From the NCBI GenBank assembly GCA_002296185.1, contig DBHM01000027.1:1-59006 (forward strand): a stretch of 59,006 nt of DNA, written 5' to 3'. The position numbers and the translations under genes were made by a program. This stretch comes from Alphaproteobacteria bacterium UBA828 (lineage in GTDB: Bacteria > Pseudomonadota > Alphaproteobacteria > UBA828). This document shows positions 2,315-55,723 of this stretch, piece after piece; position 1 is the stretch's first letter, and the number at the start of each line of letters is the position of its first letter. Under the pieces are notes generated by a model. The model saw only the letters and a list, made by a program, of their open reading frames with translations, did no database searches and was not told where the DNA came from.

Positions 2315-2951
2315 GTTTTCTCACTTCCTCAGCAATTTCTACGGGTTCTTGGCCGCGACTAAAGTGCCGAACATATTCATCTTCAGGGCTAATAAGATAG
2401 ATGTATACTGAATGATCCATAATATAATCATCATCTATAGAAGAGTCTTCTGCTTCCGGATTATTTACTCTTCTATAATAGACTCTGTATTCTTTTGCTG
2501 CTGCTTCTATTTGTCTTTGAGTGCCTGTAAGTCCAATGATATCTGGATGGAAAATAGATAAATATGATGCAAGTTGTTCTGGGGTATCACGAGCGGGATC
2601 TATAGTTATAAAGAGAGTAGCAAGCTTACTTTTTTCTACATCCAATATTTCAAGCACTTTACTTATAACAAGAAGTTCTGTGGGGCAAATATCTGGACAC
2701 CAACTATAACCAAAGAATACTAATTTATGTCTATTAGAGAAGTTTTTCTCCGTTACAGTTTTTCCATTATGGTCAATAAGAGAAAATGGTCCCCCAATAT
2801 TCGCTCCGGCCGCACTTGAGGTTAGTTCTAATCTATCACCTATTTTGTTAATATCACCAAATAAAGAACCTTCGAACCACGCGTAAAACATCAATAAGCC
2901 AAGTATAATTGTCCATATTGTGGTTTTCTTTGTAAAGGTTGGGAGCTTCAT
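2307..2951 (-). CDS. SCO1/SenC family copper chaperone/thiol protein
   Basis: N-terminal TM anchor, GGPFSLIDHNG, FFGYSWCPDICP (CxxxC), DPARDT, MDHS (conserved His). Confidence 0.93.
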   Translation of the reverse strand: MKLPTFTKKTTIWTIILGLLMFYAWFEGSLFGDINKIGDRLELTSSAAGANIGGPFSLIDHNGKTVTEKNFSNRHKLVFFGYSWCPDICPTELLVISKVLEILDVEKSKLATLFITIDPARDTPEQLASYLSIFHPDIIGLTGTQRQIEAAAKEYRVYYRRVNNPEAEDSSIDDDYIMDHSVYIYLISPEDEYVRHFSRGQEPVEIAEEVRKHL

Positions 2952-3009
2952 ATAAATTCACCTAGAATTAAAAATAATTTTATTTATCAATAATATTCAA
3001 TATTTAAGC

Positions 3010-3861
3010 TTACGCTATTTTATCAAATTTTTTAGCAAGTTTATGCGCTGCTTCCCGTCTTTTTTCAGGTGATACATCAGGATCAAGAACCTTCCGTAAT
3101 TCAACAACATTACCAATAACTAGGATAGCTGGAGGCTCAATTTCTTCCTTTATAGCTACCTTGGCTAGTTTACCAAGAGGTGCTTCTATTACTTGTTGAT
3201 TAGCTAAAGTGCCGTTAGCTACTATAGCAGAGGGTGTGGAGGCTGAAAGTCCATTTTCAATTAGTTTTTTTGCTACATTTTCTAAATGAGCAAGCGCCAT
3301 ATAAAAAATTAAAGTTGGAGCCCCTGCTGCTATTGCTTTCCAGTCGAGGCTATCAGGTATATTGCCTCCAGCACCATGGCCTGTTAAAAAAGTTACACCA
3401 TGTCCAGTAGTGCGATGTGTTACGGGTATGCCTGAGGCAGCAAGCCCTCCTACACTCGCAGTTATTCCAGGTACTAATCTAAATGGTATATTTTCTGCTG
3501 CTAACGCCAAGGCCTCCTCACCTCCGCGGCCGAACATAAATGGATCTCCACCTTTTAGACGTAAAACACGTTTCCCAGATTTTGAGCATTCAATTAGACG
3601 CTGAATAATGTCACGTTGCTTAAAAGAGGGTTTCCCTCCTCTTTTACCGGCATATTCCAAAACTACTCCTGCTGGCACTAATTGAAGTATATTTTTACTT
3701 ACCAAGGCATCATAAATTACTATATCTGCTTGATGTAAGGATCTATACGCACGGAGAGTTAGTAGCCCTGGGTCACCTGGGCCGGCCCCTACTAGCCATA
3801 CAGAGCCAGTTTCAAAACTGGGGTTATCAATTTCTGATATATCGATGATACTACGTTTCAT
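3010..3861 (-). CDS. cobA: Uroporphyrinogen-III C-methyltransferase (SUMT)
   Basis: VWLVGAGPGDPGLLTL, YDALV, RLKGGDPFMFGRGGEE, PGITA; no dehydrogenase/chelatase domain. Confidence 0.95.
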   Translation of the reverse strand: MKRSIIDISEIDNPSFETGSVWLVGAGPGDPGLLTLRAYRSLHQADIVIYDALVSKNILQLVPAGVVLEYAGKRGGKPSFKQRDIIQRLIECSKSGKRVLRLKGGDPFMFGRGGEEALALAAENIPFRLVPGITASVGGLAASGIPVTHRTTGHGVTFLTGHGAGGNIPDSLDWKAIAAGAPTLIFYMALAHLENVAKKLIENGLSASTPSAIVANGTLANQQVIEAPLGKLAKVAIKEEIEPPAILVIGNVVELRKVLDPDVSPEKRREAAHKLAKKFDKIA

Positions 3862-3872
3862 GATGATCCAAT

Positions 3873-3888
3873 GCTATCCTGAGATAGC
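3873..3888. promoter_or_regulatory. Inverted repeat GCTATC-N4-GATAGC in the cobA/cbiD divergent spacer; possible operator
   Basis: Perfect 6-bp arms read directly from the 52-bp spacer; function not shown. Confidence 0.25.
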
Positions 3889-3913
3889 TCTTTGGGCTAT
3901 ATAAACTTTACTT

Positions 3914-5059
3914 ATGATGATAAACGACCAAGAATCAATATTTGGCCATGGAGAGGGCCTGAGGGGTCCAGATTCTGCGAATTTGCGCAGAGGATGGACA
4001 ACGGGTGCCTGTGCTGCGGCAGCTGCCAAGGCGGCTACAGAGGGCCTATTGGGGGTGATTTTTCCTGATCCAATTACTATAGATCTTCCTAGGGGTATAA
4101 GGCAGCCTTTTAATATTACTGCATTTGAGTTTGGTCACAAGTGGGCTAGGGCAAGTGTAAGAAAAGATGCTGGCGACGATCCGGATGTAACACATGGAGC
4201 TTTAATTGTTTGTGAAGTACGTATTACTGAGCCTGGGTCAGGAATCAGATTTATAGCTGGTTCAGGTGTTGGCACAGTGACACGACCAGGTCTCCCTATT
4301 TCTGTTGGAGAGCCTGCTATAAGTCCAGGACCAAGAAAATACATAAAGGAGGCTATCGAAAGCGTTACTGAAAGGGAAAATAAACCATGCAATTTTGATA
4401 TTATCATATCAGTGCCGGGCGGAGAAAAACTTGCTCAAAAGACTCTAAATGAGAGGCTTGGGATTAAGGGTGGAATTTCAATTCTTGGTACGACGGGAGT
4501 GGTTATTCCATATTCCTGCGGTGCATGGATAGCATCGATACACAGAGGGGTTGATGTCGCTCGTGCTGCAGGGCTAACACACATTGCAGCAGCTACAGGA
4601 AGAACATCAGAAACAGGTGTAAAAGACTTACATCAATTATCTGACCAAGCAATTATAGATATGGGTGATTTTGCAGGTGGATTTTTAAAATATCTTTCAA
4701 AGAATCCGTTGCCTCGGGTAACAATAGCTGGGGGGTTTGCAAAAATAGCTAAGCTAGCAAGAGGGCACTTAGATCTTCACTCTAAAAGAAGTCAGATAGA
4801 TATAGAATACCTAGTTACTAGCCTGTCCACCTTAGGTGCTAGTGATGAAATAATAAATGAAGCTAAAATGTCTAGTAGTGGAGCTGAAATATTATTGATT
4901 GCCCAAAAAGCTAAACTACCCCTAGCAAATCTTGTTGCTGTTGACAGTTGTAAGGTCGTGATTCAAACGCTCTCATCTGGCGATCATGCAAGTGGCATCT
5001 CTGTTGATGTGGTTATTTTTGATAGAAACGGTGTTTTGGTTGGACATGCAAATGGATAA
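3914..5059 (+). CDS. cbiD: Cobalt-precorrin-5B C1-methyltransferase
   Basis: LRRGWTTGACAAAAAKAA, KDAGDDPDVTHG, GVGTVTRPGL, LGIKGGISILGTTG. Confidence 0.96.
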   Translation: MMINDQESIFGHGEGLRGPDSANLRRGWTTGACAAAAAKAATEGLLGVIFPDPITIDLPRGIRQPFNITAFEFGHKWARASVRKDAGDDPDVTHGALIVCEVRITEPGSGIRFIAGSGVGTVTRPGLPISVGEPAISPGPRKYIKEAIESVTERENKPCNFDIIISVPGGEKLAQKTLNERLGIKGGISILGTTGVVIPYSCGAWIASIHRGVDVARAAGLTHIAAATGRTSETGVKDLHQLSDQAIIDMGDFAGGFLKYLSKNPLPRVTIAGGFAKIAKLARGHLDLHSKRSQIDIEYLVTSLSTLGASDEIINEAKMSSSGAEILLIAQKAKLPLANLVAVDSCKVVIQTLSSGDHASGISVDVVIFDRNGVLVGHANG

Positions 5060-6547: not shown

Positions 6548-8355
6548 TGACTGCTCACATTTTTTTGATGATATCCACGTGGAGTATAAATGTATGATCT
6601 CCCCGCATTACGCGCATTACGTGTTTCATGGTTACCAATTATTAAAATGGTAAGCATATCTATTAGGTCTTCATTTAGATCTCTAAGTTTGAGCATTTTA
6701 ACATTTTCATTTCTCCGCCCCAAGCAGCGCGCAACAATCACCGGGCATTCTGGTCCTCTATTATTTTTAATAATATGTAGAGCTTTTTTGAGTGGTTGCC
6801 TCCTATTTTTTCCTGCGGGGTTATAGAGTGCAATGACAAACCCAGACTCAATAGCAGCAGAAACTCTTTTTTCAATTATTTTTAAGGGTGTTAAAAGGTC
6901 AGATAATGAAATCGCGCAAAAGTCATGTCCAAGTGGAGCCCCTGCACGAGCAGATGCTGCTTGCATGGCGCTTATGCCTGGTTCGACGACTACATCAACG
7001 AATCTCCATTCAGAGTCTTCAATCTGTTCAAGAAGTTCAAAAACTAGACTTGCCATTCCATAAATACCAGCATCACCAGAGCATATTAGAGCAGTATCTT
7101 CACCTTTTGCGGCTAAGTTTAGAGCCATACTAGCTCTCTTAGTTTCATCTCCGATGGTAAAAGAGTGCTTAAGACAATTGATGTTTAGATGCTCAATAAG
7201 TTCTAAATATCCAACATACCCTACATGGTGTTGGCTTTCATTGAGTGCTTTGAGAACCGCAGGTGTCATCCAGCTTTTCTGACCTGGCCCAAGCCCTACT
7301 ATGGTAAGTCGGCCAATTCTTCGTCCAACCTCTTCTATATTTATACTATTTTTTGACTGCGCTATAGAGCACGTTACACCTTTTGCGCTCTGTTTTGGCG
7401 CAATGAGGGAAGATTCTGATCCCGCTGCACACAGGGCAGCTCCTTCTGCAACCCCGTAACAGCCAACAGCTTCAAATACGGTATTTGAGGGATTTATTAA
7501 TCGTAAACGTTGTTCATTTAATTGATGAACATCAAAAAATATAAGAGGTACCTCAAGGTGCGAAGATAGGTCGCGAATTGCAACTTCATCTGCTTTTAAG
7601 TCTATTGATGTTATACATGCAATCGAGGATGGAGATATTTTATTATCCTTTATCATTTTCTCAGCAAGATTAATTAATTCTTTTGATTTTACTTCTCTTT
7701 CGCAACCTACGCCTATTGCAATTGTTTTTGGTATTAGCACTACATCACCACAAGCATCGGATTTATCACTAAGAGTTATAGAAAGTTTGGCGTCTTCATT
7801 CCATTTATATTGATCTTTTATCCACGAGCAGTCTCCGGATTCAACTTGAAGGCGTACTGGCTTATCGTTTAAAATTGCGTTTGTAACTTCCTTAACCTTA
7901 CTTTTATGGTTGATTTCCCACCCTGGTGGAGGATCATCAAAGGCAGTATCAATTAATGTTTCGCTTGCTGTGGTGTTCACTAGAGACGCTTGTAACTTTA
8001 AAGCAATATCCTTTCCGATTTTATTTCCCCCTCTGTGGCCCCCTAGTATGGGTATAACAAAAGATCCATCAGTCGATATGGCTATTACTGGTGGTTCTTC
8101 TAGCTTATTAGATATAATTGGTGCCAAGGCTCGAATGAGAATACCACTAGAGCATATCCCTATAATTGGTCTTCCTGCCAAAAAAAGTGACTGAAGAAGA
8201 GGTGAGATATTTTCAAAAGCACTGTCTTTATTTCCGGCTATATTTTTAGGTGCGTATATCTCACAAGGGAAGCATGCTGCACTCAAAGTTTTTGCGATAT
8301 TAGCACTATAGGTATTAAGTGTAATGACTGCCGCGAGATTGTTTCGAGTATTCAT
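6544..8355 (-). CDS. cobJ: CbiG (cobalt-precorrin-5A hydrolase)/CobE domains fused to precorrin-3B C17-methyltransferase
   Basis: N-half: GILIRALAP, EPPVIAI, GGHRGGN, TTASE, GVGC, GVAEGAAL (CbiG). C-half: VGLGPG, SGDAGIYGMA, PGISAMQAASARAGAPLGHDFCAISLSDLLTP, ALYNP, YTPRGY (CobJ/CbiH). Confidence 0.92.
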   Translation of the reverse strand: MNTRNNLAAVITLNTYSANIAKTLSAACFPCEIYAPKNIAGNKDSAFENISPLLQSLFLAGRPIIGICSSGILIRALAPIISNKLEEPPVIAISTDGSFVIPILGGHRGGNKIGKDIALKLQASLVNTTASETLIDTAFDDPPPGWEINHKSKVKEVTNAILNDKPVRLQVESGDCSWIKDQYKWNEDAKLSITLSDKSDACGDVVLIPKTIAIGVGCEREVKSKELINLAEKMIKDNKISPSSIACITSIDLKADEVAIRDLSSHLEVPLIFFDVHQLNEQRLRLINPSNTVFEAVGCYGVAEGAALCAAGSESSLIAPKQSAKGVTCSIAQSKNSINIEEVGRRIGRLTIVGLGPGQKSWMTPAVLKALNESQHHVGYVGYLELIEHLNINCLKHSFTIGDETKRASMALNLAAKGEDTALICSGDAGIYGMASLVFELLEQIEDSEWRFVDVVVEPGISAMQAASARAGAPLGHDFCAISLSDLLTPLKIIEKRVSAAIESGFVIALYNPAGKNRRQPLKKALHIIKNNRGPECPVIVARCLGRRNENVKMLKLRDLNEDLIDMLTILIIGNHETRNARNAGRSYIYTPRGYHQKNVSSQ

Positions 8356-31740: not shown

Positions 31741-33330
31741 ATGAGAAATTTTCAATTACCTGGGCGCTCCCCAGTTTTTGGGTGCCATGGAGCTGTAGCT
31801 ACTTCACACCCTCTAGCAACCCAGGTCGCTGCAGATATTTTGAAGTCCGGTGGAAATGCCATTGACGCAGCTGTGGCTTCTGCCGCTACACTAAGTGTTG
31901 TTGAGCCTCAATCAACAGGCATAGGCGGCGATTGCTTTGCTCTTTGCGCTATAAATGGGAAGGTGCCGCCTGTGGCTATAAATGGTTCAGGATATGCTCC
32001 TGCAGCCGCGAAACCGGAGTGGTTTAGTGAAAATAATATTACTAATATAGACTCTGACAGTCCTCATGCGGTTACTGTTCCGGGCGCGGTAAGAACATGG
32101 GAAAAGCTTATCTCAGATTATGGCACTAGATCTTTAGGAGAGCTTCTAAAGCCAGCAATTAACTATGCTCGTGACGGATATGTAGTTTCTCCCAGAGTCT
32201 CAGTAGACTGGAAAAACAATCAGGAAAAGCTCTCTGGCTGTGATAACGCATCAAGAATTTTTCTTAAAGAAGGAGCTCCTCCAGATGCAGGGACAATTCA
32301 TAAGCAGCCTGAATTGGCTGACACACTTGAATTAATATCTAGAGAAGGTGCTGATATTTTATATGAAGGGTGTTTAGCTGAGGAGCTTGTTACATACTTA
32401 CGTTCACTAGGTAGCTTAATGACAGTTGATGATTTTTCCTCTTTTACACCAAAGTATGTTAATCCGATTTACACTAACTATCGTGGATATGATGTATATG
32501 AATGTCCCCCTAATGGGCAAGGTGTAATTGCGTTATTAATGTTGAAAATTCTGTCAGGTTATGACGCAAAAGAATTAGATCCTTTGGGAGTTGATAGATT
32601 TCACCTTGAGGCAGAGATAGCTAAACTAGCATACAGAGATCGATCAATATTTTTAGCTGACCCTGACAAGGTGGAAGTACCTTTAGAATATTTACTTTCA
32701 GATTCTCATGCGGAGGAACTGCGATCAAAAATTAGCATGAGGAAGGCAATATCTAATTTATCTATAACAGATAAATTTAATCATCGTGATACTGTATATT
32801 TAGCTACAGTGGATAGTAGGGGAAATTTTGTTTCATTTATAAATTCACTCTTTCATCCTTTTGGGTCAGGCCTTTGTTCGCCTAAATCTGGAATCATATT
32901 TCAAAATCGTGGATCTAGTTTTTCGTTAGACAAAAATCATATGAATTGTATAGCGGGACACAAAAGGCCGATGCATACTATAATTCCAGGTATTCTCAGT
33001 AAGAATAATTCAGCTATTATGGCGTTTGGTGTAATGGGTGGGCATTATCAAGCTTGTGGCCATATGCATATTTTATCTAATCTCATAGATTATGATATGG
33101 ATATTCAAGAGGCCTTAGACTTTCCCAGGGGATTTTCTTTTGAAGATAGCTATGATTTGGAATCTACAATTCCACATTCTGTTGCATCAGGTCTACAAGA
33201 TAGGGGGCACAAAATAAATTGGGTAGAGGAAGGTATAGGTGGTGGCCAAATAGTTAGTATGGATTTGGCTAGTGGTGTAATATCTGGCGCTTCAGAGCCC
33301 CGCAAGGATGGCGTAGCGCTGGCTTGGTAG
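31741..33330 (+). CDS. Gamma-glutamyltransferase-family Ntn hydrolase, YwrD/HpxW-like, no signal peptide
   Basis: ATSHPLA, GGNAIDAA, TGIGGD, PPNGQG, autoprocessing site RD|TVYL, GSG...QNRG, RPMHTIIPG (not the RPLSSM of classic GGT), GVMGG. Confidence 0.88.
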   Translation: MRNFQLPGRSPVFGCHGAVATSHPLATQVAADILKSGGNAIDAAVASAATLSVVEPQSTGIGGDCFALCAINGKVPPVAINGSGYAPAAAKPEWFSENNITNIDSDSPHAVTVPGAVRTWEKLISDYGTRSLGELLKPAINYARDGYVVSPRVSVDWKNNQEKLSGCDNASRIFLKEGAPPDAGTIHKQPELADTLELISREGADILYEGCLAEELVTYLRSLGSLMTVDDFSSFTPKYVNPIYTNYRGYDVYECPPNGQGVIALLMLKILSGYDAKELDPLGVDRFHLEAEIAKLAYRDRSIFLADPDKVEVPLEYLLSDSHAEELRSKISMRKAISNLSITDKFNHRDTVYLATVDSRGNFVSFINSLFHPFGSGLCSPKSGIIFQNRGSSFSLDKNHMNCIAGHKRPMHTIIPGILSKNNSAIMAFGVMGGHYQACGHMHILSNLIDYDMDIQEALDFPRGFSFEDSYDLESTIPHSVASGLQDRGHKINWVEEGIGGGQIVSMDLASGVISGASEPRKDGVALAW

Positions 33331-33364
33331 GGAGGGTTAAAAAAGGAAAAATTTTATATCTTCG

Positions 33365-34339
33365 TTATACATTCGAAGAACGTTGTTTTAGCAGTCCATA
33401 AACAATATTAATTGTAGGTGTCGGTACTCCAACAAGTTTTCCAATTTCTGCTACTGACCCTAAAATAGGGTCAGTTTCCATAGGTCTGCCAAGTTCAAGG
33501 TCTTGCAACATAGATGTTTTATGTTGTCCTACTGATTTTGCTCCTTCTATGCGTGTATCAACATCTATATTAAATTTAGCGCCTAAACGTTCTCCAATTG
33601 CCTGCCCTTCTAGCATCATTGTTCTAGCTAGAGCCCTAGTTTCATGGTTGACACATATCTCTTCAAGAGTTGCTCCAGTAAGAGCACTAATGGGATTAAA
33701 TGCTAAGTTACCCCATAATTTCATCCAGATATCCGAGCGAATATCTGATCTTATTGGAGATTTAAATCCTGCACTTATTAATAATTTGCTTAGTTTAATA
33801 ATACGGTCGGATTTACTGCCGTTTGGTTCTCCAATGGGTAGACGTTTTTGACTGATATGAGGTTGCATTTCAATTATTCCGGGAGATATAATCTGGGCAG
33901 CTGGGTAAACAACTGTTCCTATAACTCTCTCAGGCGTAATTTTGTTCCATTGAAGATTATCTGGATCAACACTCCTTATTTTGTAATTTTCCCACCTTCC
34001 CGCTAACTTATAGAAATACCACCAAGGTAAGCCATTCTGTGCATTAATAACTGATGTTTCTTGACCTATTAACGGATTAATTAGCTCGTAAGGGGATGCA
34101 GATGAATGTGCTTTTAGAGTTATAAACACGTAGTCGTGAACACCTGCCTCCTTTGGATCATTAATACAACGCGGTCTAGCAACTATTTCTTCACCTTCAG
34201 TTTTTATAGTTACACCATTATCTTGCATAACTTTAAGATGCTTTCCGCGAGCAATAAGTGTTACGTCAGCCCCTGCCAATGAAAGTTCTGCCCCTATATA
34301 AGCCCCTATTGCACCGGCGCCAAATATACATATACGCAT
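33365..34339 (-). CDS. Ketopantoate-reductase-family protein, probable oxalyl-CoA reductase (PanE2-like)
   Basis: FGAGAIG, TLKAH, AQNGLPWWYFY, KLWGNLAFNPISAL, KTSMLQD..GRPME; 1-nt overlap with the upstream CoA ligase. Confidence 0.8.
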   Translation of the reverse strand: MRICIFGAGAIGAYIGAELSLAGADVTLIARGKHLKVMQDNGVTIKTEGEEIVARPRCINDPKEAGVHDYVFITLKAHSSASPYELINPLIGQETSVINAQNGLPWWYFYKLAGRWENYKIRSVDPDNLQWNKITPERVIGTVVYPAAQIISPGIIEMQPHISQKRLPIGEPNGSKSDRIIKLSKLLISAGFKSPIRSDIRSDIWMKLWGNLAFNPISALTGATLEEICVNHETRALARTMMLEGQAIGERLGAKFNIDVDTRIEGAKSVGQHKTSMLQDLELGRPMETDPILGSVAEIGKLVGVPTPTINIVYGLLKQRSSNV

Positions 34340-35850
34340 TATCCTAAACCTAATTTTTTTGCGAGACCTGATCTCTGGAGTTTTCCAGTAGGACCCTTTG
34401 GTATCTCTTCTAAAAAAACAATCTGTCTCGGAATTTTAAAATTAGAAAGTTTTTTTTCTAAAAAATTTTGAAGATCTTTTTCACTGACTGTTTCTCCATC
34501 GCATAAAACAACTGCAGCCGCAACATCTTCTCCTAGCTTGTCGTGGGGAACAGCAAATACCAAAGACTGGTGAACGCTCGGATGCTCAGAGAGAACATCA
34601 TCAACTTCATTCGGGGATATTTTTTCTCCACCACGATTTATAATCTCTTTGAGTCTTCCGGTAAGCTTAAGGTAGCCGCTTTGATCTAATATTCCTTGAT
34701 CTCCAGTTCGAAACCAGCCATTAACGTATGCATAGGTATTTGCTTCTTGATTATTTTCGTAACCAGATGTTACATTTTCACCACGTATTACAACCTCTCC
34801 TTCTTTACCGCTCGGTAAGATATTTCCATCATTATCAATTATTGCAATTTCAGGACCAGCTGCTAGACCTACATGACCGGGAAGCCGCTTAGTTGGAGGC
34901 AGTGGATTGCTTGCCATTTGGTGAGCTGCTTCAGTCATGCCATAAGACTCGATAACAGGGCAGTCAAATTTATTTTCTAAATCAATCATAACTGAAGAAG
35001 GTAAGGGCGCTGATGAGGAACGTATAAAACGAAGTCTATTCTTTTTAATTATATTATTATTACGTGGTGCACGTGCTAAAATTGCTTGGTGCATTGTCGG
35101 CACCCCAGTATACCATGTGGGTTTTTCAGAATCTAACCAGGAAAAAAATTTAAGCGCATTAAACCCTGGAGAGCAGGAGATGCTGGCCCCAGCATTTAGT
35201 GAAGATAGTACGGCTGCAACAAGACCGTGTATATGAAATAATGGCATAATATTTAGGCATATATCTTTTTCACTCAGTGCCAACCATGAAGAAATATTAT
35301 TTGCTGAATAAGCCAGATTTTTCTGTGATAGTGGAACTATCTTAGGTTTTGATGTTGTACCTGATGTATGCAAAACAAGTGCTTCATCTTCTTCATGTAA
35401 TCCATTTGTATTGTAGTATGTGTCTGAACTGGAACCTTCAAGTTCGAAGCTGCCTGCGGGATTTTGTGGCTGTGAAATAAGATATATGACCTTAATCCCA
35501 AGATCTTTTGCAATTTTTATTGCAGGAGAATTGTCACCATAATCCACAATTACTGCCCTAGCATTTAAGTCTTTAAGATAGTATTCAAATTCTTCTGGGC
35601 GATATGCCGGATTTAGAGGGGCCGCTGATGCCATAGAAGATACTGTGATAAATGCAGTAGCCATTTCGGGCCCATTATTAGCTATAATTGCAACTCTATC
35701 ATTTCTTCTGATCCCGAATTCTTGAAGTTTTAAAATGGACTTCTCAACCAAAGTCCTGAGTTCTAGATAATTAAGATAATTTCTGTCAGGAGCTTTAATT
35801 GCTGGGTCATAATCTTTGCCATAGCTAAGTAATTTAGAAATTGTATTCAT
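34339..35850 (-). CDS. Acyl-CoA synthetase, probable oxalate-CoA ligase (Oxs/AAE3/Pcs60-like)
   Basis: APLNPAY, LHTSGTTSKPK, MPLFHIHGL, PGFNALKFF, TWYTGVPTMHQ, RFIRSSS, YGMTEAAHQMASNPLPP, INRGGEKI. Confidence 0.85.
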   Translation of the reverse strand: MNTISKLLSYGKDYDPAIKAPDRNYLNYLELRTLVEKSILKLQEFGIRRNDRVAIIANNGPEMATAFITVSSMASAAPLNPAYRPEEFEYYLKDLNARAVIVDYGDNSPAIKIAKDLGIKVIYLISQPQNPAGSFELEGSSSDTYYNTNGLHEEDEALVLHTSGTTSKPKIVPLSQKNLAYSANNISSWLALSEKDICLNIMPLFHIHGLVAAVLSSLNAGASISCSPGFNALKFFSWLDSEKPTWYTGVPTMHQAILARAPRNNNIIKKNRLRFIRSSSAPLPSSVMIDLENKFDCPVIESYGMTEAAHQMASNPLPPTKRLPGHVGLAAGPEIAIIDNDGNILPSGKEGEVVIRGENVTSGYENNQEANTYAYVNGWFRTGDQGILDQSGYLKLTGRLKEIINRGGEKISPNEVDDVLSEHPSVHQSLVFAVPHDKLGEDVAAAVVLCDGETVSEKDLQNFLEKKLSNFKIPRQIVFLEEIPKGPTGKLQRSGLAKKLGLG

Positions 35851-36159
35851 TTTTAACTACTTTTTTCTTCAGTATTGATTTGTAATATCATCTAGAATCA
35901 TACAATTATAATGTTTCTGCTTTAATTTTCATAATCCATAGAGCATTAAAAATTTAAATTCTTAAATAAGTCTTATAGATCATTGTTTATTGGACATTCA
36001 ACTAATGGTATTTTGGCAGGGATTCATCCATCGGGCAAACTGATAGAGTGGGTATTTCGTAAATATAGATTTTAGTCTTTAAATTATTGTTTTATTTTTT
36101 TATTTATAATTAAGTTTTTTTATTTAATTAAAGGTTTTAACAGAGTCTTAGGAGATATT

Positions 36160-36882
36160 ATGAGCAAAGTTGCTTTAGTTACAGGGGGTACGCGCGGTAT
36201 TGGTGAAGGTATTGCAGTTAATCTTAAGGAAAGGGGATATAAGGTAGCTGTAAATTACAATAACGATGACTCGGTTGCTAAATCCTTCCATAATAACACA
36301 GGTATTCCTGTTTATAAATGGGATGTAAGCGATTGGGAGTCCTCTGAGAAGGGTATAAGCTCCCTAATAAATGATATGGGCTCAATTGATATATTAGTTA
36401 ACAATGCTGGAACTGCATCTGATTCAAAGTTTGAAAACATGACTCTTGACCAGTGGAGAAAAGTACAAAGAGTAAACTTAGATTCTGTATTTATTACATC
36501 AAAGTTAATTTATCCTTATATGATAGAAAAAAAATGGGGGCGCATAATTAATATTGGATCCATGAATGGGCAGGCTGGACAGTTAAATCAGGTCAATTAT
36601 GTTGCTGCAAAAGCTGGAATGCATGGATTTACAAAGGCTCTAGCATTAGAGGCTGCGAAATATGGAATAACAGTTAATACAATAGCCCCAGGATACGTCG
36701 ATACTTATCTTATGAGTCAGATGCCAGATAGAATAATGGAAAAAATTATAGGCGCATCACCGGTTCGAAGATTGGGGTTAGAAAAAGAGGTTGCTCATGC
36801 TGTAATATTTTTAATTGATGAATCTGCTGCATGGATGACGGGTTCAACTATCTCTATGAATGGTGGGACTCATATGTATTAG
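36160..36882 (+). CDS. phbB: Acetoacetyl-CoA reductase-like SDR
   Basis: VTGGTRGIG, NNAG, NLDSVF, NYVAAK (YxxxK), IAPGY, GSTISMNGG. Confidence 0.8.
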   Translation: MSKVALVTGGTRGIGEGIAVNLKERGYKVAVNYNNDDSVAKSFHNNTGIPVYKWDVSDWESSEKGISSLINDMGSIDILVNNAGTASDSKFENMTLDQWRKVQRVNLDSVFITSKLIYPYMIEKKWGRIINIGSMNGQAGQLNQVNYVAAKAGMHGFTKALALEAAKYGITVNTIAPGYVDTYLMSQMPDRIMEKIIGASPVRRLGLEKEVAHAVIFLIDESAAWMTGSTISMNGGTHMY

Positions 36883-54472: not shown

Positions 54473-55723
54473 CTAAGTAACTTTTTTTTTGTTAAGAAAA
54501 TTAATTTTTTCATCTTCGTATGAGAGCCAATCACGGAGCACTTCGTCTGTATGCTGACCCAAAGTTGGTGCGGCAGATGGATAGTCAACGGGGGTTTTTG
54601 AGAACTTAATAGGGTTTCCTGGATGATCTACATATTCCCCAGAAGCATGTGGAATAGATACTTTCATATCACGGGATAAAATTTGTGGGTCAGAAAAGAC
54701 TCGATCTAATTTATTTATTGGACCGCAGGGTACTCCGGCAACATCGAGCTCAGAAATCCATTCATCCATAGTTTTGCTAAGTGTTAAATTTTGTATTTGC
54801 TCATTAACAAACTCACGATTTTCAATTCTAGATCTATGGGTTGCAAATCGGGGGTCTTTGATTAAATCAGGATTTCCTGCAATATTTAAGAATTTTTCTA
54901 GCTGTCCATTGTTTCCTATTCCGAGAATCATGTGCCCGTCTTTTGTGGGGAATACTCCATAGGGAACAATATTTATATGTTCGTTTCCAAACCTTTCAGG
55001 TGCTTGACCCCCAACTAAATAATTCATCGCTTGCGTAGATAACCAACTAGCTTGCGTGTCTAAAAGTGCCAAATCAATATGTTGACCCTCACCTGTCAAT
55101 TGTCGCCAGTTAAGTGCAGCTAAGATGGCAGTTATTGCATACATACCAGTCATTAAATCTGAAACTGCAACTCCAACTTTTTGAGGTCCTGCACCTGGCT
55201 GACCATCAGGTACACCTGTTATACTCATTAGTCCGCCAGCACCCTGAATGATTAGATCATATCCAGCTCTTTCTGAATAAGGGCCTGTTTGGCCAAAACC
55301 CGTAATAGAACAGTATATCAGGCGTTTGTTATAATGTGCTAAGCTCTCATAATCGAGGTTATATTTTTTTAGACCACCGACTTTATAGTTTTCAATTAAA
55401 ATATCTGCCTTGGTTGCAAGCTCACGAGCTATTTCTTGGCCCTCTATTTTTGATAGATCAATTGTTATAGACCGCTTTGCCCTGTTTGTGGACATAAAAT
55501 AAGCTGCGTCACCAGTTTCATTTCCTTCACTATCTTTTATAAATGGGGGGCCCCAACTACGAGTATCATCACCGGTATTTGGACGTTCAACCTTTACGAC
55601 ATCCGCTCCAAAATCAGCTAAAAGCTGACCACACCATGGACCAGCAAGCACTCGGCTCATATCAAGAACACGTAGGTTTTTTAGTGGTCCTGTACGCTCG
55701 TTATTTGTAGTGCTTGAGTTCAT
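54473..55723 (-). CDS. Family III CoA-transferase (CaiB/BaiF)
   Basis: VLDMSRVLAGPW, GDDTRSWGPPF, NRAKRS, SITGFGQTGP, GVAVSD (catalytic Asp), APTLGQHT. Confidence 0.93.
   Translation of the reverse strand: MNSSTTNNERTGPLKNLRVLDMSRVLAGPWCGQLLADFGADVVKVERPNTGDDTRSWGPPFIKDSEGNETGDAAYFMSTNRAKRSITIDLSKIEGQEIARELATKADILIENYKVGGLKKYNLDYESLAHYNKRLIYCSITGFGQTGPYSERAGYDLIIQGAGGLMSITGVPDGQPGAGPQKVGVAVSDLMTGMYAITAILAALNWRQLTGEGQHIDLALLDTQASWLSTQAMNYLVGGQAPERFGNEHINIVPYGVFPTKDGHMILGIGNNGQLEKFLNIAGNPDLIKDPRFATHRSRIENREFVNEQIQNLTLSKTMDEWISELDVAGVPCGPINKLDRVFSDPQILSRDMKVSIPHASGEYVDHPGNPIKFSKTPVDYPSAAPTLGQHTDEVLRDWLSYEDEKINFLNKKKVT

Follow-up and report, generated by a model that had tools for sequence, protein, structure and literature searches.

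A candidate oxalate assimilation module with a linked Ntn hydrolase in a marine alphaproteobacterium

A 59,006-nucleotide stretch of DNA from Alphaproteobacteria bacterium UBA828 (contig DBHM01000027.1; hereafter, the window) carries three adjacent genes that encode an oxalate-CoA ligase (Oxs), a PanE2-type reductase, and a cytoplasmic hydrolase of the gamma-glutamyltransferase (GGT) superfamily. The oxs-panE2 pair very probably converts oxalate to glyoxylate. There is about an even chance that the three genes together form an oxalate assimilation module in which the amidase is coupled to the pair and may act on oxamate or a different oxalyl amide. If the hydrolase does split oxalyl amides, both nitrogen and C2 carbon would be recovered. 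The source assembly, from a marine alphaproteobacterium, comprises 1.6 Mb and is 77% complete. A preliminary description of this DNA proposed a compact route from oxamate and oxalate; the oxalate-to-glyoxylate pair stands and the linkage of the hydrolase proves to be conserved, whereas the hydrolase is not an HpxW orthologue and a purine origin of the oxamate is not supported.

Organization of the locus

All three reading frames are intact and lie exactly where they had been placed (Table 1). Two further details of the arrangement hold on rereading: the ligase stop codon and the PanE start codon share one base (TAATG, within ...GGA TAA TG CGT... on the minus strand), and a short spacer lies between the hydrolase gene and panE2, whose stop codons face each other. 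Since the hydrolase gene is convergent with oxs-panE2, it is not co-transcribed with the pair here; a consensus scan of the spacer revealed no terminator-like hairpin. In the divergent region upstream of oxs, the best sigma-70-like match (ATGAAA-16-TATAAT) agrees at 10 of 12 positions and is a consensus match only, and no Rfam element was detected there. The short-chain dehydrogenase (SDR) on the far side of this region has counterparts (64-81% identical) that adjoin oxs at only five loci; it is possibly a lineage-specific accessory or merely conserved synteny.

Table 1. Features of the locus (positions in the window).
Feature	Positions	Strand	Remarks
GGT-like hydrolase gene; cytoplasmic GGT-superfamily Ntn amidohydrolase, YwrD/BhGGT-2NLZ/HpxW class	31741-33330	+	529 aa, intact ORF; PF01019 479 bits
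AT-rich spacer between convergent stop codons, hydrolase / panE2	33331-33364		34 nt, sequence read
PanE-family reductase gene; PanE2-type oxalyl-CoA reductase (CoA-acylating glyoxylate dehydrogenase)	33365-34339	-	324 aa, intact ORF; GAGAIG at residues 7-12
Acyl-CoA ligase gene; Oxs, AAE3-type oxalate-CoA ligase (AMP-forming)	34339-35850	-	503 aa, intact ORF; coupled translationally to panE2 via TAATG
Divergent intergenic region upstream of oxs	35851-36159		best sigma-70-like match at 35932-35905 (-)
SDR, acetoacetyl-CoA-reductase-like	36160-36882	+	divergent from oxs; TIGR01829 288.6 bits, under cut-off 302

The oxs-panE2 pair

The closest PDB matches of the ligase are all oxalate-CoA ligases (5IE0, 397 bits; 6QJZ, 390; yeast Pcs60, 356), and the 397 bits scored against the plant oxalate-CoA ligase leave a twofold gap to other ligase classes, the next being malonyl-CoA synthetase at 200 bits. 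In the alignment, Ser280, His310, and Lys490 of the ligase correspond to Ser289, His319, and Lys500 of AtAAE3, and the equivalents of AtAAE3 His216 and Met314 are likewise conserved. Ser289 and His319 have been described as specific to oxalyl-CoA synthetases (PMC8905533). The top NCBIfam match of the protein is a FadD7-family model, under its cut-off.

The reductase scores 446 bits against NF005089 (cut-off 223), a family that NCBIfam names 2-dehydropantoate 2-reductase. Aligned over its full length with PanE2 of Methylorubrum (Methylobacterium) extorquens (WP_015822665; reading frame taken from the supplement of PMC12686821), it shows 47% identity (E 3e-105); that enzyme has been employed as an oxalyl-CoA reductase (PMC12686821). 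M. extorquens PanE2 nests within the family of the window reductase in the tree. In 55 of the 87 rows of this family oxs adjoins panE, and the adjacency spans the Alpha-, Beta-, and Gammaproteobacteria, Gemmatimonadota, Latescibacterota, and Chloroflexota. The retained oxalate-binding residues and score gap of the ligase, together with the identity, tree position, and widely conserved operon of the reductase, uphold both assignments made in the preliminary description.

In the proposed scheme, Oxs would convert oxalate, ATP, and CoA to oxalyl-CoA, and the PanE2-type reductase would use NAD(P)H to reduce this intermediate to glyoxylate. Outside the locus, the genome encodes malate synthase G, which could then condense glyoxylate with acetyl-CoA. 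We infer that flux runs from oxalate to glyoxylate because the ligase is AMP-forming and because no oxc or frc orthologue is present, either in the window, as had already been noticed, or in the whole assembly. The score of a CaiB-type CoA-transferase at 54473-55723 is far under the frc cut-off.

The hydrolase

The hydrolase exceeds the cut-off of the curated gamma-glutamyltransferase model TIGR00066 (398.5 bits versus 357.85). Its ATG at 31741 is the first start downstream of an upstream stop, with the GGT domain following from residue ~12 (TIGR00066 matches from residue 18, and PF01019 covers residues 32-524), which leaves no room for a signal peptide, in agreement with the original reading. 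The motifs first reported are also present, namely D350-T351-V-Y, with Thr351 as the nucleophile, and R409-P-M-H412-T413; they are accompanied by Q388-N-R390-G-S-S-F and the oxyanion pair G433-G434. The counterparts in E. coli GGT read Q-T391-T-H and RPLSS. Where E. coli GGT has R114, Q430, D433, S462, and S463, the protein has S, R, S, H, and T; it has no lid loop. In this alignment the hydrolase lacks the gamma-glutamyl-binding residues, namely those that contact the alpha-carboxylate and alpha-amino groups. Its best PDB match is 2NLZ from B. halodurans (386 bits); HpxW (5HFT, 126+96 bits) is second best for the small-subunit part. The class also includes the signal-less B. subtilis YwrD, to which the literature assigns no physiological role (PMC8062742), and relatives of the 2NLZ type have been called gamma-glutamyl hydrolases.

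Linkage of this hydrolase type to oxs-panE2 is real but facultative. The linkage, which the preliminary description had marked for checking, is conserved in ~24 genomes from at least seven alphaproteobacterial families, with differing flanking genes and three different arrangements; in the genome contig collection the two adjoin at 15 loci. In a survey of 401 alphaproteobacterial species, hydrolase and oxs lie within 6 kb of each other in 10 of 53 co-occurring genomes (~19%; seven families), against roughly 0.2 by chance, and their co-occurrence has an odds ratio of 7.4, a value not adjusted for phylogeny or genome size. Oxs is missing from about half of the genomes that encode the hydrolase family. 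In Mesorhizobium sp. WSM4313, the genes for a substrate-binding protein, an ABC ATPase, two permeases, the hydrolase, Oxs, and PanE2 follow one another co-directionally (with gaps of 22 and 50 nt) in an apparent operon; further out lie genes for Pot-type importers, a DAO-family oxidase, and a PuuR-like regulator. Adjacency to oxs-panE2 is also seen in a Dehalococcoidia metagenome-assembled genome, there for a second GGT-like lineage that is distantly related (34% identity). Where basal-clade hydrolases are unlinked, all four genomes checked carry Oxs elsewhere; none of the four checked with derived-clade hydrolases in other contexts carries it. One complete genome from the same family as the window has the hydrolase gene and oxs-panE2 244 kb apart, with an IS256-type transposase abutting the former. 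Homologues of ~50% identity lie beside a peptide-type ABC importer in Methylobacterium and, in Rhodospirillales, near a TTT transporter, a split TPP decarboxylase, an aldehyde dehydrogenase, and an AstE/AspA deacylase.

This recurrent linkage suggests that the hydrolase feeds the operon, a functional coupling to which we give roughly even weight. The protein, a self-processing cytoplasmic Ntn enzyme, would then cleave an oxalyl amide to oxalate and ammonia or an amine. The substrate is the most conjectural part of the scheme; the simplest candidate, by the precedent of HpxW, is oxamate, an assignment that is possible but on balance doubtful.

Alternative explanations

For the oxs-panE2 pair, mis-assignment is very improbable. 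In this case the reductase would be the housekeeping ketopantoate reductase, as its NCBIfam name implies and as might befit the only PanE-family match in the 77%-complete assembly, and the ligase, given its FadD7-family top match, would activate a fatty or other organic acid. The oxalate-specific residues and twofold score gap of the ligase argue otherwise, as do the placement of the reductase within the characterized PanE2 family and the retention of the oxs-panE operon across phyla. It is just as improbable that the reductase works oxidatively, forming oxalyl-CoA from glyoxylate, CoA, and NADP+, so that the locus serves to remove glyoxylate. The reaction can run both ways, and a preprint on Cupriavidus necator proposes such a role for ApbA2, encoded beside frc-oxc; here, however, the reductase gene is coupled in translation to that of an AMP-forming ligase, which would make oxalyl-CoA irreversibly, malate synthase G offers an outlet for glyoxylate, and no oxc or frc that could use oxalyl-CoA is found, though in a genome only 77% complete.

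For the hydrolase, the strongest competitor, less probable than coupling to oxs-panE2 though well worth weighing, casts the protein as a YwrD/BhGGT-type enzyme that hydrolyses gamma-glutamyl or glutaryl amides in general in the cytoplasm, positioned by inherited synteny and genome compaction. The TIGR00066 score, the kinship with 2NLZ, the convergent orientation, the absence of Oxs from half of the genomes with this family, the loss of linkage even in the window's own family, and the Mesorhizobium neighborhood, which recalls gamma-glutamyl-amine catabolism, would all fit. Yet none of the residues for binding the alpha-amino and alpha-carboxylate groups is retained, adjacency recurs among differing flanks and in three arrangements, an independent GGT-like lineage is likewise linked in Chloroflexota, and Oxs tracks basal rather than derived clades in the eight genomes checked. 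An HpxW-type oxamate amidohydrolase serving the cell's own purine or allantoin catabolism, as in Klebsiella, is unlikely. The earlier label "HpxW-like" is apt only for the active-site signature of the cytoplasmic class: a Thr nucleophile, QNRG...HT...MGG, and small residues at E. coli positions 432 and 433 are common to both groups. Orthology is ruled out by an identity of ~31%, by the separate, fully supported clade that HpxW orthologues form behind a long branch, with the window protein nearer 2NLZ, and by the absence here of the hpxW neighbors (AS amidase, AtzH-like, GNAT, and RpiR proteins; hpxXYZ). Moreover, neither oxs nor panE occurs at any of 80 HpxW loci examined, and no alignment column unites the linked hydrolases with HpxW against other clades. 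The suggestion that oxamate arises from purine breakdown is not supported either. The genome encodes ureidoglycolate lyase (the glyoxylate route); an AllD-type dehydrogenase, the AllG subunit of oxamate carbamoyltransferase, and hpxXYZ are absent from the 77%-complete genome, which thus encodes no known oxamate source. Of 15 other genomes that have Oxs together with this hydrolase type (linked in 11 of the 15, unlinked in four), 11 lack AllG.

Comparison with known systems

Oxalate assimilation through Oxs and PanE2 is known from M. extorquens AM1 (Schneider et al. 2012, J Bacteriol 194:3144, as relayed in PMC8411744 and PMC12686821). The same two enzyme families and the same predicted chemistry, oxalate to oxalyl-CoA to glyoxylate, recur in the window. 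In contrast to M. extorquens, oxs and panE2 are translationally coupled here, and the genome shows no oxc/frc branch, so that the route would be purely assimilatory and end at malate synthase; the attached GGT-family hydrolase also lies outside the M. extorquens scheme as described.

The ApbA2 enzyme of C. necator, 51% identical to PanE2, was picked by BLAST as the probable CoA-acylating glyoxylate dehydrogenase, and a deletion strain was put to a growth test on oxalate (Claassens et al., bioRxiv 10.1101/2020.05.08.083683). Both reductases belong to the PanE2 family, with a proposed interconversion of glyoxylate and oxalyl-CoA. The gene for ApbA2 has frc-oxc close by, and the enzyme can function in glyoxylate oxidation, whereas the window reductase has an ATP-dependent ligase as its partner and neither frc nor oxc.

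The B. halodurans protein 2NLZ, deposited as a "cephalosporin acylase," belongs to the same signal-less class without a lid loop. It falls outside the alphaproteobacterial clade (branch length ~1.0) and has His-Asn at positions 432/433, unlike the small residues of the linked group. We know of no oxalate context for it. Finally, K. pneumoniae HpxW is an oxamate amidohydrolase (PDB 5HFT; Hicks and Ealick 2016) that, like the window protein, is a cytoplasmic GGT-superfamily Ntn hydrolase with QNRG-small-small-F, HT, and MGG..Q motifs and without equivalents of Arg114, Asp433, and Ser462/463. HpxW is encoded beside AS amidase, AtzH-like, and GNAT proteins under an RpiR regulator, whereas the window hydrolase, of a separate clade, is encoded beside oxs-panE2.

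Organization of the locus

The three genes of interest encode a GGT-like Ntn amidohydrolase (529 aa), a PanE-family reductase (324 aa), and an oxalate-CoA ligase-like protein (503 aa). They lie among unrelated housekeeping genes in the window, whose G+C content is about 39% and which covers the opening 59 kb of contig C12 in a 1.6-Mb assembly of 30 contigs (77% complete). RegB/RegA and MetX/MetW are encoded nearby, as are GDP-fucose and heptose functions; these genes and the nearest relatives assign the window to marine Alphaproteobacteria. Every feature that the preliminary description listed for the three open reading frames (extent, overlap, convergent gap, and motifs) was recovered. The ligase gene (oxs) and the reductase gene (panE2) overlap by 1 nt in the sequence TAATG, in which the stop codon of oxs runs into the start codon of panE2. 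The hydrolase gene and panE2 are convergent, with 34 nt between their stop codons. No terminator hairpin was found in this 34-nt gap, no Rfam match to a regulatory RNA was found in the spacers of the locus, and promoter-like matches in the spacers are at background level. The hydrolase reading frame begins at the earliest possible start codon and its GGT domain starts within about 12 residues, leaving no room for a signal peptide. Its D350-T351-V-Y and R409-P-M-H-T413 motifs are both confirmed.

Coordinates of the features discussed in the text. L numbers denote fetched comparison loci, G000 the window's own genome, and G057 a genome of the same family; reading frames in fetched loci were called with our own script, which gives spurious antisense frames in high-GC loci.
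Feature	Sequence	Coordinates	Strand	Basis
Hydrolase	window	31741-33330	+	ORF call
Reductase (panE2)	window	33365-34339	-	ORF call
Ligase (oxs)	window	34339-35850	-	ORF call
SDR resembling acetoacetyl-CoA reductase	window	36160-36882	+	just below TIGR01829 cut-off
CaiB/BaiF-type family III CoA-transferase	window	54473-55723	-	frc model, 167+76 bits (cut-off 504)
AllA ureidoglycolate lyase	G000, contig C13	2588-3034		
RidA/YjgF	L002	6993-7379		
RidA/YjgF	L082	3368-3754		
RidA/YjgF	L084	1665-2051		
AptA-type aminotransferase	L009	3043-4470		
AptA-type aminotransferase	L011	3041-4420		
AptA-type aminotransferase	L050	2871-4322		
AptA-type aminotransferase	L025	907-2292		
AptA-type aminotransferase	L242	13220-14608		
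AptA-type aminotransferase	L247	3876-5207		
GGT-like gene of another lineage	L039 (Dehalococcoidia MAG)	2672-4342		
IS256/Mutator-family transposase	L251 (G057)	6952-8205		

The predicted oxalate-CoA ligase and its partner reductase

The ligase matches both PF00501 and PF13193 (the ANL adenylate-forming fold), and its closest structures are all oxalate-CoA ligases: Arabidopsis AAE3 (5IE0, 397 bits), Lathyrus OCS (6QJZ, 390 bits), and yeast Pcs60 (8AFF, 356 bits). Malonyl-CoA synthetase, the class that follows, reaches 200 bits. Ser289 and His319 of AtAAE3 are specific to oxalyl-CoA synthetases (PMC8905533). A phmmer alignment places Ser280, His310, and Lys490 of the window ligase at Ser289, His319, and the catalytic Lys500 of AtAAE3, and the other pocket positions are identical or conservatively replaced (Val215-His216 by Ile-His, Cys288 by Ser, and Ala313-Met314 by Gly-Met). 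Given the score gap to other classes and the retained oxalate pocket, the ligase is accepted from its sequence as a predicted oxalate-CoA ligase of the Oxs/AAE3 type (EC 6.2.1.8), as first proposed.

The reductase matches PF02558 and PF08546 (the two-domain PanE/ApbA fold), scores 446 bits against NCBIfam NF005089 (twice the cut-off), and is the sole PanE-family match in the assembly. It is 47% identical over 320 residues (E 3e-105) to Methylobacterium extorquens PanE2 (WP_015822665), whose sequence was obtained by translating the codon-optimized panE2 reading frame in the supplement of PMC12686821. According to one preprint, Cupriavidus necator ApbA2 (51% identical to PanE2) is the probable CoA-acylating glyoxylate dehydrogenase, and a strain lacking it was tried on oxalate (bioRxiv 10.1101/2020.05.08.083683). 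When the 87 closest homologues in species-representative genomes were placed in a tree (a quick search with SH-aLRT as the only support measure), PanE2 nested within the family of the window reductase, among betaproteobacterial members that themselves adjoin oxs. Adjacent oxs genes accompany 55 of the 87 family members, and the loci concerned span Alpha-, Beta-, and Gammaproteobacteria, Gemmatimonadota, Latescibacterota, and Dehalococcoidia; the oxs-panE2 unit is therefore a widely conserved operon of a kind already known. Identity, shared tree family, and coupling to oxs all agree with the earlier PanE2 assignment, and the window protein groups with PanE2 as a predicted oxalyl-CoA reductase, or CoA-acylating glyoxylate dehydrogenase (EC 1.2.1.17).

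An intracellular GGT homologue lacking the gamma-glutamyl site

The hydrolase is a full-length GGT-superfamily protein (PF01019) that exceeds the curated GGT cut-off (TIGR00066), so annotation pipelines will name it a gamma-glutamyltransferase. Its active site argues otherwise. Thr351, the nucleophile, and the Gly-Gly oxyanion pair remain in place, while Arg114, Gln430, and Asp433 of E. coli GGT are replaced by Ser83, Arg390, and Ser393, the Ser462/Ser463 pair is replaced by His412/Thr413, and the lid loop (E. coli Tyr444) is deleted. Without a signal peptide, the gamma-glutamyl-binding residues, or the lid loop, the protein is rejected as a canonical gamma-glutamyltransferase (EC 2.3.2.2 / 3.4.19.13). 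The best solved relative is Bacillus halodurans 2NLZ (386 bits, residues 7-529), compared with 239-263 bits for classical GGTs and 126+96 bits for Klebsiella pneumoniae HpxW, the oxamate amidohydrolase of PDB entry 5HFT (PMC12360370). In the hydrolase tree (likewise a quick search with SH-aLRT support only), the alphaproteobacterial clade holding the window hydrolase has 2NLZ as its sister (support 97). These features place the hydrolase, as a signal-less protein without a lid loop, in the predicted intracellular YwrD/BhGGT (2NLZ) class, the likeness to Bacillus subtilis YwrD being one of description. YwrD has no assigned role according to a 2021 review (PMC8062742).

Linkage of the hydrolase gene to oxs-panE2

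The three-gene linkage pointed out in the preliminary description recurs in several families but is facultative. Searches by PanE or by hydrolase found 15 distinct genomes in which the hydrolase gene adjoins oxs-panE2. In an evenly drawn sample of 401 alphaproteobacterial species genomes, the hydrolase family (threshold at least 440 bits) is present in 109, Oxs in 86, and both in 53. The two genes lie no more than 6 kb apart in 10 of these 53 genomes, representing 7 families, against about 0.2 cases expected if the genes were placed at random in 4-Mb genomes. Little weight is given to the raw co-occurrence odds ratio (7.4), which genome size and phylogeny confound. Linked hydrolases form the basal grade of the hydrolase tree; all four unlinked members of this grade that were checked have Oxs elsewhere in the genome, and Oxs was found in none of the four genomes checked from the two derived clades. 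Obligate coupling is argued against by the other catabolic contexts of the derived clades, by the absence of Oxs from about half of the sampled genomes that have the hydrolase family, and by G057, a complete genome from the same family as the window, in which the hydrolase gene and oxs-panE2 are 244 kb apart. An IS256/Mutator-family transposase gene stands directly upstream of the G057 hydrolase orthologue (59% identity), and genes for sarcosine oxidase and a class II aldolase lie downstream.

The arrangement of the genes also varies. The window and its relatives share a direct convergent arrangement with Pelagibacterales-type MAGs and one Hyphomicrobiales MAG; at some other convergent loci a RidA gene or other genes intervene. 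In Mesorhizobium sp. WSM4313 the hydrolase gene is co-directional with oxs-panE2, and genes for an SBP_bac_8 binding protein, an ABC ATPase, two permeases, the hydrolase, Oxs, and PanE2 follow one another in that order. Being on a single strand with gaps of 22 and 50 nt, this string looks like one operon. Upstream of it (locus L241) are a PuuR-like HTH_3+cupin regulator, a second Pot-type ABC system, and a DAO-family oxidase whose top match, L-pipecolate oxidase, is below cut-off; this layout recalls amine or opine catabolism. In a Dehalococcoidia (Chloroflexota) MAG, a GGT-like gene of another lineage (34% identity; NNRLFGF and KRTIHT motifs) is divergent from oxs-panE2, an apparently independent association.

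Homologues from the derived clades, about 50% identical to the hydrolase, stand in two other conserved clusters. In Rhodospirillales MAGs (loci L090-L150) they accompany TctCBA (a TTT transporter), a split TPP decarboxylase, an aldehyde dehydrogenase, an AstE/AspA deacylase, and a PLP enzyme, and in Methylobacterium (loci L111-L160) the gene stands at the end of a DppABCDF-like peptide ABC importer. Both clusters look like uncharacterized amide catabolic units.

Candidate substrates

Oxamate is the most economical guess for the hydrolase substrate, since oxamate hydrolysis is known from one class member, the neighboring ligase would use the product, and the acyl-binding pocket no longer has its gamma-glutamyl contacts. 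The purine origin of oxamate suggested in the preliminary description is not borne out. AllD/Ldh_2, AllG (the oxamate carbamoyltransferase subunit), and the Klebsiella hpxXYZ proteins were not found in the 77%-complete genome, and the ureidoglycolate lyase AllA, which is present, yields glyoxylate directly; an endogenous purine route to oxamate is accordingly rejected. AllG is also present in only 4 of the 15 other genomes that hold both this hydrolase type and Oxs. Escherichia coli K-12 excretes oxamate and is unable to use it. The importer genes of WSM4313 point to an external substrate. The 378-aa binding protein encoded there is only distantly PotD-like, which is compatible with oxamate and does not favor it over an N-oxalyl amine.

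Recurrent neighbors were considered as a further clue and set aside, as none is general and none names a substrate. RidA/YjgF genes directly follow the hydrolase gene, separating it from panE2, in three related Rhizobiaceae-labelled MAGs. An AptA-type omega-aminotransferase (NF052567, 678 bits; about 60% identity from one lineage to another) divergently adjoins or lies within about 2.5 kb of oxs-panE2 at some six loci from several lineages. This enzyme might aminate glyoxylate to glycine; no orthologue was found in the window's genome, where identities reach at most 33%. An MFS transporter neighbor occurs at one locus. The SDR gene of the window is divergent from oxs and keeps this position only in the five nearest related loci (64-81% identity).

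Proposed direction and fate of oxalate carbon

The absence of oxalyl-CoA decarboxylase (oxc) and formyl-CoA transferase (frc) genes that had been noted for the window extends to the whole 77%-complete assembly, in which the top oxc match scores 127 bits (cut-off 739) and no frc above cut-off was found, only several CaiB-type paralogues. One of these approximately seven genome paralogues is the 416-aa CoA-transferase of the window, rejected as an frc orthologue because it scores far below the cut-off. Oxs would convert oxalate to oxalyl-CoA, the PanE2-type reductase would convert oxalyl-CoA to glyoxylate, and malate synthase G, which is encoded in the assembly, would condense glyoxylate into malate. 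With an AMP-forming ligase upstream, no oxc or frc found, and malate synthase G present, the sensible direction of flux is from oxalate through oxalyl-CoA and glyoxylate to malate, although the missing 23% of the genome leaves some doubt. From its AllA gene, the organism probably also degrades ureides to glyoxylate and urea, and this glyoxylate would enter the same pool.

Marine and soil oxalate turnover is usually surveyed by oxc and frc markers. The route from Oxs and PanE2 to malate synthase would be independent of both and purely assimilatory; its operon is conserved over several phyla, and surveys based on these markers would miss it.

Comparison with HpxW and other known systems

The hydrolase and HpxW have in common a cytoplasmic GGT fold and a Thr nucleophile, and an NGSG, QNRG, HT, and MGG..Q pattern is common to both, to 2NLZ, and to Thermoplasma acidophilum 2I3O. 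Through this shared pattern, the preliminary description was right at the level of signature in calling the protein HpxW-like, a non-classical GGT of a subtype that includes HpxW; it is not an HpxW orthologue. The corresponding motifs differ in detail (QNRGSSF, RPMHT, and GVMGG in the hydrolase; QNRGAAF, KQPFHT, and GSMGG in HpxW). Against 80 true HpxW orthologues, fetched with the 5HFT small-subunit sequence, the window hydrolase is 30-35% identical, and neither oxs nor panE occurs within 8 kb of any of the 80 loci. The neighbors of Klebsiella hpxW are also different (an AS amidase, an AtzH-like protein, a GNAT protein, and an RpiR regulator), and their counterparts were not found in the window's 77%-complete genome. 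In the hydrolase tree, HpxW orthologues form their own clade (support 100) behind a branch of 1.07, and the window hydrolase falls outside it, with 2NLZ and alphaproteobacterial proteins. Low identity, separate clade, and unlike neighborhoods argue that the hydrolase is not a member of the HpxW family by descent. An active-site signature joining the linked group to HpxW was also sought and rejected, as no alignment column is kept in both yet different in both other-context clades. Small residues are preferred at the E. coli 432/433 positions in the linked group and HpxW, which is treated as a weak hint.

A tentative reading, which we hold to be possible but rather unlikely, is that a distinct alphaproteobacterial clade of YwrD-type homologues acts as an amidohydrolase on oxalyl amides (oxamate) and evolved independently of HpxW. 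Its combination with Oxs and PanE2 would give a putative three-step route that recovers both nitrogen and C2 carbon from oxamate-like compounds of external origin. In some lineages a dedicated Pot-type ABC importer would serve this route, which is found in marine lineages, one of them a MAG labelled Pelagibacterales, and in rhizobia. If true, it would add a new point at which small organic-nitrogen amides enter central metabolism. A full-text literature search returned no paper naming both oxamate and oxalyl-CoA synthetase or ligase, and YwrD is without an assigned role; that a YwrD-type hydrolase repeatedly accompanies the oxalate module thus appears to be undescribed.

Apart from HpxW, we know of no intracellular GGT homologue with an assigned role, and pipelines call this large class gamma-glutamyltransferase although it lacks the gamma-glutamyl site. 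A reproducible genomic link to oxalate activation provides a concrete, testable hypothesis for this mis-annotated class, and Mesorhizobium sp. WSM4313 is culturable. The proposed chemistry is itself unsurprising, and its value lies in a testable role for part of the class. The Oxs-PanE2 pair of the window, for its part, adds a new member to a system already known.
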